Origin: an uncultured Candidatus Saccharibacteria bacterium | GTDB taxonomy: Bacteria; Patescibacteriota; Minisyncoccia; Portnoybacterales; GWB1-42-6 | DNA length: 24,049 bases | Assembly: GCA_964647205.1 (NCBI GenBank) | Contig: CAZYIG010000001.1 | Span: 1 to 24,049, forward strand | Direction of reading: 5' to 3' | Shown: positions 4,161-16,139 of the stretch, one piece after another | How the letters are laid out: each line of letters opens with the position of its first letter | Numbering within the stretch: the stretch's first letter is position 1 | Translations under genes and position numbers: made by a program | The notes under the pieces: model-generated | Databases searched by the model: none | What the model was told of the DNA's origin: nothing | What the model saw: only the letters and a program-made list of their open reading frames with translations

Positions 4161-5138
4161 ATGGATCAGAAAAAATCATCTCGCAAGATCAATGTTTTAG
4201 CGGCTATTTTAATATTGCTGATTGGTGTTTTTGTTGGCGGTTATTTAGTTTTAAAAAGCGGCAAAATTTCCGCCGGCGAGTTGAATGAAATTCTAAAGGG
4301 CCAAACCATTGACTTGGCGCTTTGTGAGCCCAATGTTAATGATGCAACAAGCGACGCTGATAACGATGGACTTAAAGACTGGCAAGAAATCCAGCTTTAT
4401 AAAACCGACTCCTGCAAACAAGATTCCGATAGCGACGGCTATTTTGACGGGGAAGAGGTGGCCTCCGGCTATGACCCTGCCCAGAAAGCCCCCGGCGACG
4501 AATTGCCCGGCACAACACCAAAATCGCCCCGCCCTCTGCCCAACAATCTGACCATCGCCCTGCAACAAAAATTATCTGAACAAATCCGCCAGGATAGAAT
4601 AAGCCCGCTGGACGCTGATGGGAATCTTCTCTCTTCAAGAGAGCTGGAGCAGTTTCCCGGAATTCAACAGGCTGTTTGGGAAGTAAGTCAACACAAGGAT
4701 CAAATTTTTGCGCCAGATCCGATTGAACTAAACGAAATTAAAACTACAACCGACAATAGCCTCGAGTCAATTCAATTATATATCAAGAAAGTTAGTGAAT
4801 GCGTTAGCTGTAATGATCAACTTTATTTAAAAATTGAAGCTCAAATTTTTCTTGATGCAATTCAAAATAATGATTTTACGGAAGCAACCAGTCAACTCCG
4901 AGAATACCAAGAGTCTTACCAAAAGTTAAAATCACTAACCGTGCCTAGCGACTTCTTGACTTTGCATATCCAAATAATGAATATTCTGTCCGGCTCAATA
5001 AAAGTTTACCAGGCGATTATTAATGTTACGTCTGATCCGCTCAAGGCTAATCTAGCGTTACAACAATATGAAGTCTTTCTGAACCAGACCATCCAGTGGG
5101 CACAAAATTTTGAAACTACTCTTAATAATCATCATTAG
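4161..5138 (+). CDS. Membrane-anchored protein with bacterial thrombospondin type 3-like Ca-binding repeats
   Basis: N-terminal TM (NVLAAILILLIGVFVGGYLVL); DADNDGLKDWQE...DSDSDGYFDGEEVASGYDP at 4353-4478; helical C-terminus. Confidence 0.8.
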   Translation: MDQKKSSRKINVLAAILILLIGVFVGGYLVLKSGKISAGELNEILKGQTIDLALCEPNVNDATSDADNDGLKDWQEIQLYKTDSCKQDSDSDGYFDGEEVASGYDPAQKAPGDELPGTTPKSPRPLPNNLTIALQQKLSEQIRQDRISPLDADGNLLSSRELEQFPGIQQAVWEVSQHKDQIFAPDPIELNEIKTTTDNSLESIQLYIKKVSECVSCNDQLYLKIEAQIFLDAIQNNDFTEATSQLREYQESYQKLKSLTVPSDFLTLHIQIMNILSGSIKVYQAIINVTSDPLKANLALQQYEVFLNQTIQWAQNFETTLNNHH

Positions 5139-5143
5139 ACCTC

Positions 5144-7006
5144 ATGTTTGATTTATCAACCCAGATCAATACACAAAAAACTATCAGTTTTTTTGTGCTA
5201 AGCGCATTGCTGACTCAAATAATCGTCGGCGGAATTTTATTGCCCTATCAACAAGCCCAAGCTTGTGTTGATATAATCGGCGGGCCTTCTGGTATCTTAA
5301 ATTTTATTGCAAATATCGGTAACTATATTTGGACCGCGGCTAAGTGGGTCTATCAGAATGCCCAAGCTGCCATTACTGCCGCATATGCGTTGTGGGAAAA
5401 ATCACAGACAATTTTAAAAGAAGCTCTCAAGGTTGCTTGGAATATTTTGCGGAAAAAATTACTTGACATGATAGTCAACGATATTATCAGCTGGATTCAG
5501 GGCGGCGGGAAACCAAGATTTGTGACCGATTGGCAAAGTTTTTTAAAAAATGCGGCCGACAAGGCCGCCGGACAACTTCTTGATAAAATGAGCCTTGGTT
5601 TTTTGTGTGATAAATTTAGCCTTCAATTACGTCTTTCGCTGGCCGCTCCGCCAACTTTTGATGAGACCGCGACCTGTACTCTTTCTACCGCTATCTCCAA
5701 TATTGATAACTTTATGACCGATTTTTCCAAGGGCGGCTGGAAGGGCTGGGTAACAATCTCCGAATCACAAAATAACTATATGGGCGCTTATTTTTTAGCC
5801 CTTAATAAAAAATATGAAGTTATGGCCAACGCCGCTGACGCAGCCAAAAACGAAGCTGCCTCTTCGGCCAGCTTTTTGGACGACAAAGTTTGTTCCCAAA
5901 GACAGTGCACGCCCGGCGTCGTTGAAAATTACTCTGGTTCCTCTTTGGGCTGGAAGCCAGATGAGCTAGACCAAGGTGGCGGTACCTCTTGCGAATGCGT
6001 AACTTGGGTAACTATCACACCCGGACGCGTGGCCGGCGATGCCCTTCAGCAAGCCTTGGGCGTTGATATAGCTAATCTTATTCAAGCCAAAGAATTTGCT
6101 GAATACGCTGCCGCTATTATTGACGCCGCCATAAATAGAGTCTTTAAGGAAGGTGTAGCTCTTTTTGACACCACCAAAAACGACGGAACGAGTGCCGGCA
6201 AAACCGGCCCGGGCATAAGCACGCCGGCAACCGTTTCGGCTAATATTTCAGATTATACTAGCGCTGTTACAAATGAGTCTCAAGCCCAATTGCTTATCCC
6301 GCAACAAAAACTTTTAAAAGAAAATCAGAATAAGCTCCTGCCTGAATACCAGACTAATTTAAGCATATTAAACCAAACTAAAACCGCTCAACTAAGCGGA
6401 CTAGCCGTTCTTATTGACCTTTATAAAAATGGATGCGCCCTGCCCGCTGGCGTTTCGGTCAGCGATATTTCCAGCACCAGAAAGAAGCTGGTGGCTACAG
6501 GAACCGGTGAAGCAATTTTAGAAAGATCCGGCAGTAGCTATACCACAATCTCAACTACTGCCACGGTAGAGACAGATATCACCATCATAAACACCGCCAT
6601 TACCAATCTTCAAAACGACATAACCAAAATAACCACGGCGATTACCGATACTGAAGATTATCAAACAAAAGCCGCCGCCTATATAACTGCCTACGAAAGC
6701 GGCAGCGGCACCCCTGCTACTATCGCTGCTAAAACAGCTATGGACACAGCCTACACCAAAGCCATTACCTCTCTTCAGGCTGCCATTCCCAGCACCTCAA
6801 CCAGCCTTAAAACTCTGACTGAAAAAATAGAAGAAAAAAATAATAACATTGCTACTACAATCTCTAGCTTGATGACAAAAAGAGGTGGTGACATCGGGTG
6901 CACTTACTACTCATCTATGCTCGCCAGCCTCTACAAAACTCTCTGCACCGCTCAGGCAAATATAGCTAGCTGGCAAACCTCTTTGTCTAGCTGCCTTAAT
7001 CCTTAA
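5144..7006 (+). CDS. Large exported helical protein of the CPR T4SS-like locus, possibly VirB5/tip-like
   Basis: Signal/TM segment ending AQA-C; block IISWIQGGGKPRFVTDW...LGFLC; Cys-rich C..C..CEC..TPG segment; about 250-aa Thr/Ala-rich helical tail. The VirB5 assignment is inference from position and helicity only. Confidence 0.6.
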   Translation: MFDLSTQINTQKTISFFVLSALLTQIIVGGILLPYQQAQACVDIIGGPSGILNFIANIGNYIWTAAKWVYQNAQAAITAAYALWEKSQTILKEALKVAWNILRKKLLDMIVNDIISWIQGGGKPRFVTDWQSFLKNAADKAAGQLLDKMSLGFLCDKFSLQLRLSLAAPPTFDETATCTLSTAISNIDNFMTDFSKGGWKGWVTISESQNNYMGAYFLALNKKYEVMANAADAAKNEAASSASFLDDKVCSQRQCTPGVVENYSGSSLGWKPDELDQGGGTSCECVTWVTITPGRVAGDALQQALGVDIANLIQAKEFAEYAAAIIDAAINRVFKEGVALFDTTKNDGTSAGKTGPGISTPATVSANISDYTSAVTNESQAQLLIPQQKLLKENQNKLLPEYQTNLSILNQTKTAQLSGLAVLIDLYKNGCALPAGVSVSDISSTRKKLVATGTGEAILERSGSSYTTISTTATVETDITIINTAITNLQNDITKITTAITDTEDYQTKAAAYITAYESGSGTPATIAAKTAMDTAYTKAITSLQAAIPSTSTSLKTLTEKIEEKNNNIATTISSLMTKRGGDIGCTYYSSMLASLYKTLCTAQANIASWQTSLSSCLNP

Positions 7007-14851: not shown

Positions 14852-14951
14852 ATATAATTTTCTTTGTCTGTCATAAAAAATAAACTAGAAAGTTGCCAAT
14901 GATTAACAAGTCTTAGACAGTTAATTCTTTGTCGAATTTCTACTACTCGGC

Positions 14952-16139
14952 ATGACCACCAAAAAAATCTTTATTATCGTCGGCGTTTTATTCGTTTTAG
15001 CGCTGGCCTCACTGCTGGTTTATAATTTATTTTTTAAATCAACAACTCCAAGCGGAGGTGGACTAACCGAATCAGGTCTGCCAACTGGCCTGCCGGGCGA
15101 AAACGGCAATAGTGGCGGTGAACAAATAAGCGCCAGTCCAAGCGCCACTCCCGATGGTTTAGCCGCGTTAAAAATTAAGCCGATTAGCCAAGAGCAAGCC
15201 CTCGCTCCAACCATCGGAGTTGACGGCAAAACCGTTAAATATTTTTCCCGAGCCAATGGCAATATTTATGAATCAAATTTTGATGGCGGTAATTTGAAAA
15301 AAATATCCTCGGTTAATTTAAATAATTTGCTAAAGGTTCTCTGGTCGCCAGACAAAGAAAAAGTCATCAGTTTTTTTTCTGAAAAAGAAATCATCAAAAA
15401 ATATTTTTATAGCTACACCAGCAATCAATCATCTCTTCTTAATGAAAAGATCGGTTCTGTTGCCTGGTCGCCGGATAGTAAAAAAATTGCCTATCATTTT
15501 ATTGACCCCGGCAACGAACAAAATAATATCAGCTTATCCAACCCCGACGGCACTAACTGGAAAAATATTTTTAAAACCCGCCTAGACAATGTCATCCTTG
15601 AATGGCCGATTAAAGAGAAAATCTCCTTGCGAACGCCTCCCAGCGGTCTAGCCCAGGGCGTTCTTTATGCCATTAATTCAGAAACCGGCGACTTCTTTAA
15701 AGTGCTTAGCGATACTTCCGGTCTTTATGTTAAGTGGTCGCCCAAGGGAGATAAAATCCTCTTTTCCTCTACCGACAGCCGAGGAAAAAATCCCACCCTT
15801 AATTTAAGCGACGAAAAAGGCGCTAATTTTAAAAAATTAAACTTAGCCGGATTGGCCGATAAGTGCGTCTGGAGCAATGATGATAAAACCATCTTCTGCG
15901 CTCTCCCTCAAGAAATTTCCCAAAACGCCACTTGGCCGGATGATTATTATAAAGGCTTGGTGGTCTTAAGAGATGATATTTATAAAATAAATCTAGAAAC
16001 CGAGCAGAGAACAAAAATCATCGGTTCAACCGATGAAATTAGTTATGATGCCCAGGAGCTTTTTCTTTCACCAAAAGAAGATTATCTTTTCTTCGTCAAT
16101 CGCGGCAATGGATTGCTATATAGCTTAAAGACACAATAG
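14952..16139 (+). CDS. Membrane-anchored TolB/WD40-like beta-propeller protein
   Basis: N-terminal TM, Gly/Pro/Ser linker, repeated blades LWSPDK, AWSPDS, EWPIK, KWSPKG, VWSNDD, FLSPKE. Confidence 0.8.
   Translation: MTTKKIFIIVGVLFVLALASLLVYNLFFKSTTPSGGGLTESGLPTGLPGENGNSGGEQISASPSATPDGLAALKIKPISQEQALAPTIGVDGKTVKYFSRANGNIYESNFDGGNLKKISSVNLNNLLKVLWSPDKEKVISFFSEKEIIKKYFYSYTSNQSSLLNEKIGSVAWSPDSKKIAYHFIDPGNEQNNISLSNPDGTNWKNIFKTRLDNVILEWPIKEKISLRTPPSGLAQGVLYAINSETGDFFKVLSDTSGLYVKWSPKGDKILFSSTDSRGKNPTLNLSDEKGANFKKLNLAGLADKCVWSNDDKTIFCALPQEISQNATWPDDYYKGLVVLRDDIYKINLETEQRTKIIGSTDEISYDAQELFLSPKEDYLFFVNRGNGLLYSLKTQ

Follow-up and report, generated by a model that had tools for sequence, protein, structure and literature searches.

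The Patescibacteria's type IV secretion system (T4SS) was described between 2023 and 2025 and is among the small number of machines for which an essential role in the epibiotic lifestyle of these ultra-small bacteria has been shown. Transposon sequencing (Tn-seq) in Southlakia revealed that the T4SS genes are essential for epibiotic growth (Wang, 2023; PMC10633639), and ComEC-dependent competence was found to be dispensable for it (PMC10633639; PMC12857230). The VirB4 motor proteins of these systems form a monophyletic Patescibacteria clade that is related to MPF-FATA; genes for TrsD, PrgI, VirB6 and VirB2-like proteins lie near virB4, homologues of the type IV coupling protein (T4CP) are mostly encoded elsewhere, relaxases are nearly absent, and dnaA, rnpA and ksgA were reported as neighbors (Quinonero-Coronel et al., 2025; PMC12102498). 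A review calls the system a newcomer of unknown function (PMC12857230), and both the export of effectors and the uptake of host molecules have been speculated on (PMC11665869). Here, we report on a gene cluster at positions 4161-16139 of contig CAZYIG010000001.1 (assembly GCA_964647205.1), a stretch of 24,049 nucleotides that was analyzed at its full length and is called the window in the following. We conclude that this cluster is very probably a chromosomal, vertically inherited T4SS of the Patescibacteria clade in the arrangement of the Paceibacteria, derived from MPF-FATA conjugation machinery and residing in a Candidatus Portnoybacteria-like genome from groundwater. The cluster is ordinary for its lineage and does not represent a new kind of system; it provides a clean and complete Paceibacteria example with a defined module of 11 genes. 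What is added to the published knowledge is the class-wide quantification of this module, the linkage of a beta-propeller gene to virB4 that does not depend on the origin of replication (oriC), the co-variation of the propeller with a protein of two immunoglobulin-like domains (2xIg), and the finding that a split in the motor gene is unlikely to be biological.

In comparison with the Patescibacteria-clade T4SS (PMC12102498) nothing essential is different. Both encode VirB4 together with TrsD, PrgI/VirB3, VirB6-like and VirB2-like pilin genes, both have no relaxase nearby, and in both T4CP homologues elsewhere, pilin arrays and the neighbors dnaA, rnpA and ksgA (rsmA) are found; in the present case, genes for a TSP3-repeat protein, the 2xIg protein, the propeller and a duplicated-domain protein are collinear across the class. 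None of these four is mentioned in the main text and the accessible supplements of that publication. The T4SS of Southlakia epibionticum ML1 (SEML1_0006-0019; PMC10633639) resembles the cluster in its origin-proximal position, in the order of the genes for the VirB6-like protein, PrgI, a TrsD-sized protein and VirB4, in its VirB2-like pilins and in having no relaxase, and an exported protein with two Ig domains, SEML1_0005, is encoded just downstream of the Southlakia T4SS genes. However, this Saccharimonadia locus carries a lysozyme-like protein, an NTF2-like (VirB8-like) protein and an array of six pilins in cis, and no propeller is listed, whereas the window has one pilin in cis and the array elsewhere, no recognizable hydrolase or NTF2 protein, and a TolB-like propeller. 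With the monoderm MPF-FATA systems, i.e., Prg of pCF10, Trs of pGO1 and the integrative and conjugative element (ICE) of mycoplasmas, the window shares PrgI, TrsD, VirB4 and the VirB6-like channel protein, but unlike these it lacks a relaxase, a linked coupling protein, a hydrolase of the PrgK/TrsG type, a VirB8-like PrgL and a PrgB-type adhesin, it encodes VirB2-like pilins, and it is fixed in the chromosome. ComB of Helicobacter pylori is a further T4SS without a relaxase that is put to a non-conjugative use, and it has been cited as a precedent for uptake (PMC11665869); it differs as a diderm VirB2-4 plus VirB6-10 system, and the comparison covered the shared core of VirB4, VirB3 and VirB6.

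Gene content and descent of the cluster

The cluster comprises 12 open reading frames (ORFs) on the plus strand, which correspond to 11 genes if VirB4 is counted once, and the gaps between the ORFs range from -8 to 100 nt. A first-pass annotation, made from the sequence alone, had described eleven co-directional genes with short gaps, which is borne out. Its VirB2-, PrgI/VirB3-, VirB4- and VirB6-like members were recovered by family matches, which are weak for the VirB6-like protein, and its TSP3, Ig-like, beta-propeller and duplicated-domain proteins were recovered by Pfam, by AlphaFold2 (AF2) models searched with Foldseek, by TIGR02800 and by an internal repeat, respectively. This inventory had to be corrected at two places: the 230-aa ORF at 10489-11181 is TrsD-like, and a 145-aa membrane ORF at 13073-13510 was added. 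The features are as follows:

4121-4149, plus strand: promoter-like site TTGCTA-17-TATAAT just 5' of g1 (pattern match only; 10 of 12 positions in a consensus scan)
4161-5138, plus strand: g1, membrane anchor and two TSP3 repeats (Pfam TSP3_bac, 7e-6)
5144-7006, plus strand: g2, secreted or anchored 620-aa protein of no known family (AF2, Pfam and fold searches)
7016-8872, plus strand: g3, putative VirB6-like polytopic membrane protein (hydropathy, NCBIfam, Pfam matches of orthologues)
8865-10193, plus strand: g4, predicted cytoplasmic protein with a tandem 84-aa domain (internal repeat alignment)
10198-10476, plus strand: g5, small PrgI/VirB3-like membrane protein (Pfam PrgI, 4.5e-9)
10489-11181, plus strand: g6, TrsD-like protein akin to the N-terminal domain of VirB4 (NCBIfam TrsD, 6.6e-7)
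11226-12371 and 12413-13063, plus strand: g7 and g8, VirB4 ATPase in two ORFs (Pfam)
12361-12436, plus strand: divergent patch with a frame change in virB4 (pairwise alignments)
13073-13510, plus strand: g9, 145-aa membrane ORF (hydropathy)
13550-14287, plus strand: g10, signal or anchor helix and two tandem Ig/PKD-like domains (AF2, Foldseek)
14348-14851, plus strand: g11, VirB2-like T4SS pilin (Pfam T4SS_pilin, 2e-6)
14952-16139, plus strand: g12, membrane-anchored TolB/PD40-like beta-propeller (TIGR02800, 2e-7)

The ORFs at 11226-12371, with the Pfam domains DUF87, P-loop_TraG and TraC_F_IV, and at 12413-13063, with P-loop_TraG at 2.3e-15, together make up VirB4 as judged from these matches. 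The best 120 homologues of VirB4 are 64-99% identical and are named VirB4 or TraC of Portnoybacteria, Parcubacteria or Patescibacteria, and in a tree built without MPF-FATA outgroups the protein nests among its class relatives. Upstream of it, g6 matches the NCBIfam family TrsD over its full length, below the curated cut-off, and the N-terminal part of VirB4_plasma (1.5e-7); it also carries a precomputed assignment to the TraC-like family PF26593. A TrsD homologue adjoins virB4 in all 100 loci examined. The PrgI match of g5 lies above the cut-off, and g11 shows, in addition to its T4SS_pilin domain, a Cys-rich C-terminal extension; an NCBIfam scan of the window moreover gave a weak match to the pilin-like protein Mbov_0395 of a mycoplasma ICE. 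For g3, hydropathy predicts about seven transmembrane segments followed by a long hydrophilic C-terminal tail. The protein weakly matches the conjugal-transfer family MMCAP2_0566 of a mycoplasma ICE (NCBIfam, 2.6e-4), 5 of 19 orthologues match Pfam TrbL/VirB6 (best 8e-5), and its profile retrieved nothing meaningful from the PDB; its assignment as VirB6-like seems reasonable but soft. A VirB8-like protein (NTF2 fold) or a VirB1-like wall hydrolase was not matched by Pfam or NCBIfam in the window, in which the folds of g1, the N-terminal half of g2 and g9 are unresolved.

The descent of the cluster was assessed on 20 loci of the same order (from the same family and six other families), 40 loci of the same class, which were searched with locally built hidden Markov models (HMMs), and 40 loci of other classes. 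At the order level, the order g1-g2-virB6-g4-virB3-trsD-virB4-g9-g10-virB2-g12 is common to 20/20 loci, all of which continue with wzy, wzy, flippase, jag, yidC, yidD, rnpA and dnaA. The typical order at the class level is rsmA, g1, g2, virB6, g4, virB3, trsD, virB4, g9 (in some cases only), g10, virB2, g12, jag-yidC-rnpA and dnaA, and out of 40 loci trsD is present in 40, virB3 in 38, g4 and virB2 in 35 each and virB6 in 32. In the other classes, the PrgI-TrsD-VirB4 core is preserved in 38-40 of the 40 loci (PrgI 38, TrsD 40), a VirB6-like gene is found in 25 and g12 in 19, and pilin arrays reach up to six genes. VirB4 itself was found in 117 of 121 genomes of the class and in 70 of 71 genomes of the phylum. 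Its identity to the window is 62-79% within the family and drops to 43-59% in other classes, and the GC content of the cluster (~0.41) matches that of the genome (0.40). Because VirB4 identity decreases with taxonomic distance, the place between rsmA and rpmH-dnaA is kept and the GC content agrees, the cluster is regarded as a vertically inherited machine and not as a mobile element.

The window is the entire contig C1 of a metagenome-assembled genome (MAG) of 873,820 bases in 147 contigs, which is 90% complete and has a GC content of 0.40. Since it is only one contig of an incomplete MAG, absence of a gene from the window says little, and the search was extended to the rest of the genome, as the first-pass annotation had proposed for VirD4 and the relaxase. 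Two T4CP-like ATPases with the domains TrwB_AAD_bind and TraG-D_C are encoded on contigs C72 and C103, unlinked to the cluster. The protein on C72 (TrwB_AAD_bind, 1e-12) has no N-terminal transmembrane segment, contains a zinc finger of the treble-clef type (zf_Tbcl_2, 8e-11) and is cut off by the contig end, and the one on C103 is partial. At 489-4812 of C72, the ATPase is preceded by a Sigma70_r4 plus HARE-HTH protein and by a protein of 440 aa without family assignment. A pilin array is located on the minus strand at the end of contig C10 (11179-13030), where three ORFs contain four T4SS_pilin domains, including a TrbC/VirB2 match at 3e-6; one ORF of 221 aa has two tandem pilin domains, and a VanW/PG_binding_4 protein (6002-7717) is encoded 3.5 kb from the array. 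The matches to T2SSE across the genome fall on three PilB-like proteins and one PilT-like protein and are consistent with type IV pili. No relaxase of the five families PF03432, PF01076, PF08751, PF03389 and PF02486 was detected in the 90% complete genome, in a search that did not include MOBC-type relaxases and oriT. Contig C1 encodes no integrase, the only two tyrosine recombinases of the genome being found on C75 and C93, and no tRNA gene that could serve as an integration site is present in the window. The earlier statement that a relaxase and an integrase are missing was upheld in this way, the missing coupling protein was confirmed for the contig but not for the genome, and the term minimal turned out to be overstated, given the pilin array and two T4CP-like ATPases that are encoded elsewhere.

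These data bear on the idea that the locus represents a conjugative element or what is left of an ICE or plasmid integrated near the origin. The homology of PrgI, TrsD, VirB4 and the VirB6-like protein to MPF-FATA conjugation genes and the presence of T4CP-like ATPases on C72 and C103 are in line with such an origin, but the position and gene order are the same across the order, the class and further classes, the flanks consist of conserved housekeeping genes in all relatives, no relaxase of the five families was found in the genome and no integrase on the contig, and the GC content is that of the genome. The T4CP-like genes are, moreover, not linked to the cluster, and T4CP homologues are non-essential in Southlakia (PMC12102498). 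We consider an integrated element or its remnant extremely improbable. The proposal that the cluster is a domesticated chromosomal apparatus rather than a conjugation system is supported by its conserved position, the trend in VirB4 identity, the GC content and the negative search for five relaxase families.

Several points weigh against the assignment of the cluster as a working, vertically inherited T4SS. VirB4 is broken as assembled, the VirB6 matches of g3 are weak, and no VirB8- or VirB1-like component was recognized in the window. The incompleteness of the genome (90%, 147 contigs) could hide a relaxase, and divergent classes such as MOBC lie outside the search. The housekeeping neighbors are as syntenic as the accessory genes, which weakens the case for g1, g2 and g4 as subunits, and all steps of the mechanism that is outlined below are drawn by analogy.

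The split in virB4 as assembled

In the assembly, frame 0 of virB4 stops at a TAA codon (12369-12371) following a T7A6 tract, and the conserved VirB4 sequence goes on in the -1 frame, which is open from 12365 onward. The frame change is located between 12354 and 12371 and corresponds to a net difference of +2 nt in the T7A6 tract. VirB4 is a single ORF of 592-676 aa in 20/20 relatives, none of which has a long A/T tract at this site. An intact VirB4 of 611 aa with 99% identity (P0001) is encoded on three contigs of other assemblies, two from JGI metagenomes and one from Logan, which are 99.5-99.7% identical to the window at the nucleotide level over 2.8-7.8 kb; in all three, the junction reads T5-C-T-A4 and encodes D-F-S-K-I-N-P-P-L-L. 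Within the 76 nt from 12361 to 12436, the window shows 8 differences to these mutually identical assemblies, including two 1-nt gaps, against a background of 0.2-0.3%. As several of the substitutions in this patch are synonymous, it looks like sequence from a co-occurring strain and not like random noise, and it resembles either the mis-join of a strain bubble or a small recombination patch inside virB4. The virB4 allele of the window was not found in metagenome contigs, where a looser pattern retrieved the intact allele only, and an exact look-up of the 381-aa product of the first half gave no match.

With high probability, the split is an assembly artifact or a private recent lesion and not a programmed feature. 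Programmed frameshifting or phase variation was rejected as unlikely, as the T7A6 tract is unique to this assembly and not found in relatives, and the near-identical assemblies are in frame; an alternative genetic code need not be invoked, as table 11 leaves all other ORFs open and what interrupts virB4 is a shift of frame, not an in-frame stop. It could still be argued that the machine is switched off or decaying in this organism and that the frame change is real, reflecting a pseudogene or a phase-variable OFF state: the stop and the second half in the -1 frame are there in the assembly, most other substitutions of the patch are synonymous, as in a real allele rather than in random error, and homopolymers are classic slippage sites. 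Against this stand the intact gene in three independent, near-identical assemblies, the single ORF and non-conserved tract in the 20 relatives, the failure to find the allele of the window in metagenome contigs, the intact state of the other 10 genes of the cluster, and the density of differences in the patch, which fits a mis-joined strain bubble. A decaying or switched-off system is, in our judgement, very unlikely. The split listed in the first-pass annotation is probably not biology, and the analysis calls for caution in general, since reads are needed before a T4SS motor gene that looks split in a MAG is given a biological meaning.

Accessory proteins and a possible mode of action

Five unannotated genes of the cluster, encoding the duplicated-domain protein (g4), the TSP3 protein (g1), the 620-aa protein (g2), the 2xIg protein (g10) and the propeller (g12), are conserved class-wide and provide a list of candidate subunits. 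The protein g1 has an N-terminal transmembrane segment at 12-30, two TSP3 repeats, which are calcium-binding and whose TSP3_bac match exceeds the cut-off, and a C-terminal domain without a family match. For g2, the AF2 model reaches a mean pLDDT of 59.5 and is confident only for residues 370-620, which form a helical bundle with a beta-hairpin insert, and the N-terminal half is not modelled; the fold matches of the C-terminal part are unspecific (best Z 10). Neither g2 nor its 14 orthologues match Pfam, scans over the orthologues gave nothing consistent, and in the Atlas only clusters from the candidate phyla radiation (CPR) annotated as hypothetical were retrieved. For a VirB5-like or adhesin fold of g2, no specific match was obtained: Z values up to 10 are typical of unrelated helical bundles, and the PDB profile matches represent coiled-coil noise. 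The protein g4 contains a tandem repeat of 84 aa (38% identity, E 6e-20) and a conserved C-terminal motif, has no transmembrane segment and matched nothing in Pfam or the PDB, and scanning all its orthologues against Pfam gave no consistent result either; judging from the Atlas, in which only CPR clusters were found, the family appears to be restricted to the CPR. The 145-aa protein g9 combines a low-complexity N-terminus with two to three hydrophobic segments predicted by hydropathy, and no family was found in Pfam or NCBIfam scans. The AF2 model of g10 (pLDDT 87.6) shows one N-terminal transmembrane helix and two Ig/PKD-like sandwiches, and the top match in Foldseek searches against the PDB and AFDB is annotated as PKD domain-containing (TM-score 0.76). 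That g10, by its position the best candidate, represents the missing VirB8 was rejected, as it is predicted to fold as 2xIg and not as NTF2. The propeller assignment of g12 by TIGR02800 is accompanied by a profile match to TolB in the PDB (4e-4) and by PD40 clusters in the Atlas.

Among the 40 class-level loci, g12 is present in 28, g10 in 25, g1 in 23 (in the same slot), g2 in 20 and g9 in 7. The propeller occurs in 92 of 121 genomes of the class, and in 79 of the 92 its gene shares the contig with virB4 and lies downstream of it, at most about 6 kb away (hand count). In 17 of the 19 loci of other classes that have g12, it adjoins virB4 with no oriC-side gene within the 20 kb that were fetched; the linkage of the propeller with virB4 is therefore independent of the origin neighborhood. 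Class-level loci without g12 also have no g10, and on the VirB4 tree they are spread over several separate groups, some of them well supported. In these loci the pilin gene abuts wzy, so that g12 is truly missing there. The co-variation of g10 and g12 is the sole solid one among the accessory genes; that of g2 with both was upheld only in part, as 1.8-3.3 kb of unassigned sequence still fill the g2 slot, which likely harbors a diverged or replaced gene in loci without a g2 match. In five loci without propeller and 2xIg protein (L098, L100, L113, L117 and L123), the ORFs matching the pilin profile are much longer (262-872 aa), which suggests that pilin modules are fused to large extra domains there. 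In two loci, L106 (G084:C5) and L129, the pilin-propeller pair occurs twice in tandem (virB2, g12, virB2, g12), a hint that the two genes duplicate as a unit.

These monoderm systems do without the scaffold of VirB8, VirB9 and VirB10. We tentatively propose that g12 and g10 genuinely belong to the Patescibacteria T4SS as extracytoplasmic subunits not described so far, maybe together with g2, and that they form a wall-spanning or host-contact module that is gained or lost as a unit in the Paceibacteria and several neighboring classes and replaces this scaffold. The first-pass annotation had regarded all non-VirB genes as candidate new subunits. In 20/20 order-level loci and in most of the 40 class-level loci, these genes accompany the core in an unchanged order, and the case is strongest for the propeller and the 2xIg protein, but synteny alone is no proof for every accessory gene. 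Some of them, especially g1, g2, g4 and g9, might instead be envelope genes unrelated to the T4SS that merely share the conserved origin neighborhood, where collinearity is just as high for rsmA, wzy, the flippase, jag, yidC, rnpA and dnaA; g1, g2 and g4 are undetectable in the more distant classes, and neither a fold nor a family connects them with any part of a T4SS. We judge this rather unlikely in view of the interleaving of the accessory with the core genes in one co-directional run of closely packed genes (gaps of -8 to 12 nt), the position of g4 between the VirB6-like gene and PrgI in 35/40 class-level loci, and the behavior of g12, which follows virB4 even away from oriC and co-varies with g10.

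If the cluster is a T4SS of the Patescibacteria clade, a likely mode of action can be outlined by analogy with known systems. A VirB4 hexamer would dock at the cytoplasmic membrane via PrgI/VirB3 and the VirB6-like protein, and TrsD, as a stand-alone copy of the VirB4 N-domain, might act as a partner of VirB4. The motor would pull VirB2-like pilins, supplied by the one gene of the locus and by at least four pilin domains on C10, from the membrane to build a short pilus or a wall-crossing conduit, and it would also drive the passage of the substrate. Together, g1 with its TSP3 repeats, the 620-aa g2, the 2xIg protein g10 and the propeller g12, all of them membrane-anchored or secreted, could constitute a lineage-specific wall-spanning or host-contact module, and g4 may be placed at the inner, cytoplasmic face of the channel. 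The machine would move cargo between epibiont and host, either proteins outward or host molecules or DNA inward, with no relaxase-dependent conjugation. Attachment, delivery and uptake, which were all named in the first-pass annotation, would fit the sequence data alike.

A more specific view, in which the machine serves for DNA uptake like ComB of H. pylori and not for export, was raised as a possibility in PMC11665869. It would suit the T4CP-like ATPases of the genome, which carry the signature of a DNA-binding domain, and the inability of Patescibacteria to make nucleotides (PMC10633639). In Southlakia, however, the T4SS is essential, but neither comEC-dependent competence nor the t4cp homologue is (PMC12857230; PMC12102498), and nothing in the sequence fixes the direction of transport, so that we assign a low probability to a device dedicated to DNA uptake.

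Origin-side surroundings

The first-pass annotation had placed the cluster near the origin of replication, and the gene context agrees with this, as only about 6 kb separate the end of the cluster from rpmH-rnpA-yidD-yidC-jag and dnaA, with dnaA starting at 22364 and a DnaA box in front of it. The surroundings contain the following features:

Upstream of the cluster: pcrA
1532-2491: rsmA/ksgA
2480-4015, minus strand: 511-aa polytopic protein with about seven N-terminal membrane segments and a spermidine-synthase-like methyltransferase domain
16096-20234, minus strand: tandem pair of Wzy_C paralogues, which are O-antigen ligase/polymerase-like, and a flippase
Downstream of the flippase, minus strand: jag/khpB, yidC and yidD
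21645-21989, minus strand: rnpA
21996-22130, minus strand: rpmH (44 aa), upstream of rnpA
Ending at 22363: spacer between rpmH and dnaA with two DnaA-box-like 9-mers 22 nt apart, at 22230 (one mismatch) and 22252 (perfect)
22364-23743, plus strand: dnaA (Pfam Bac_DnaA, 1.6e-71)

The rpmH-dnaA spacer is likely the oriC-side landmark of the contig. It contains the only perfect DnaA box of the window; the number of boxes across the window is not above chance, and only their position is suggestive. On the other side of the cluster, rsmA and the gene of the 511-aa protein converge and share 12 nt. The pair of Wzy_C genes and the flippase gene lie between the T4SS cluster and jag, a place that is conserved across the order, and the first Wzy_C gene is convergent with the propeller gene and overlaps its end by 44 nt.

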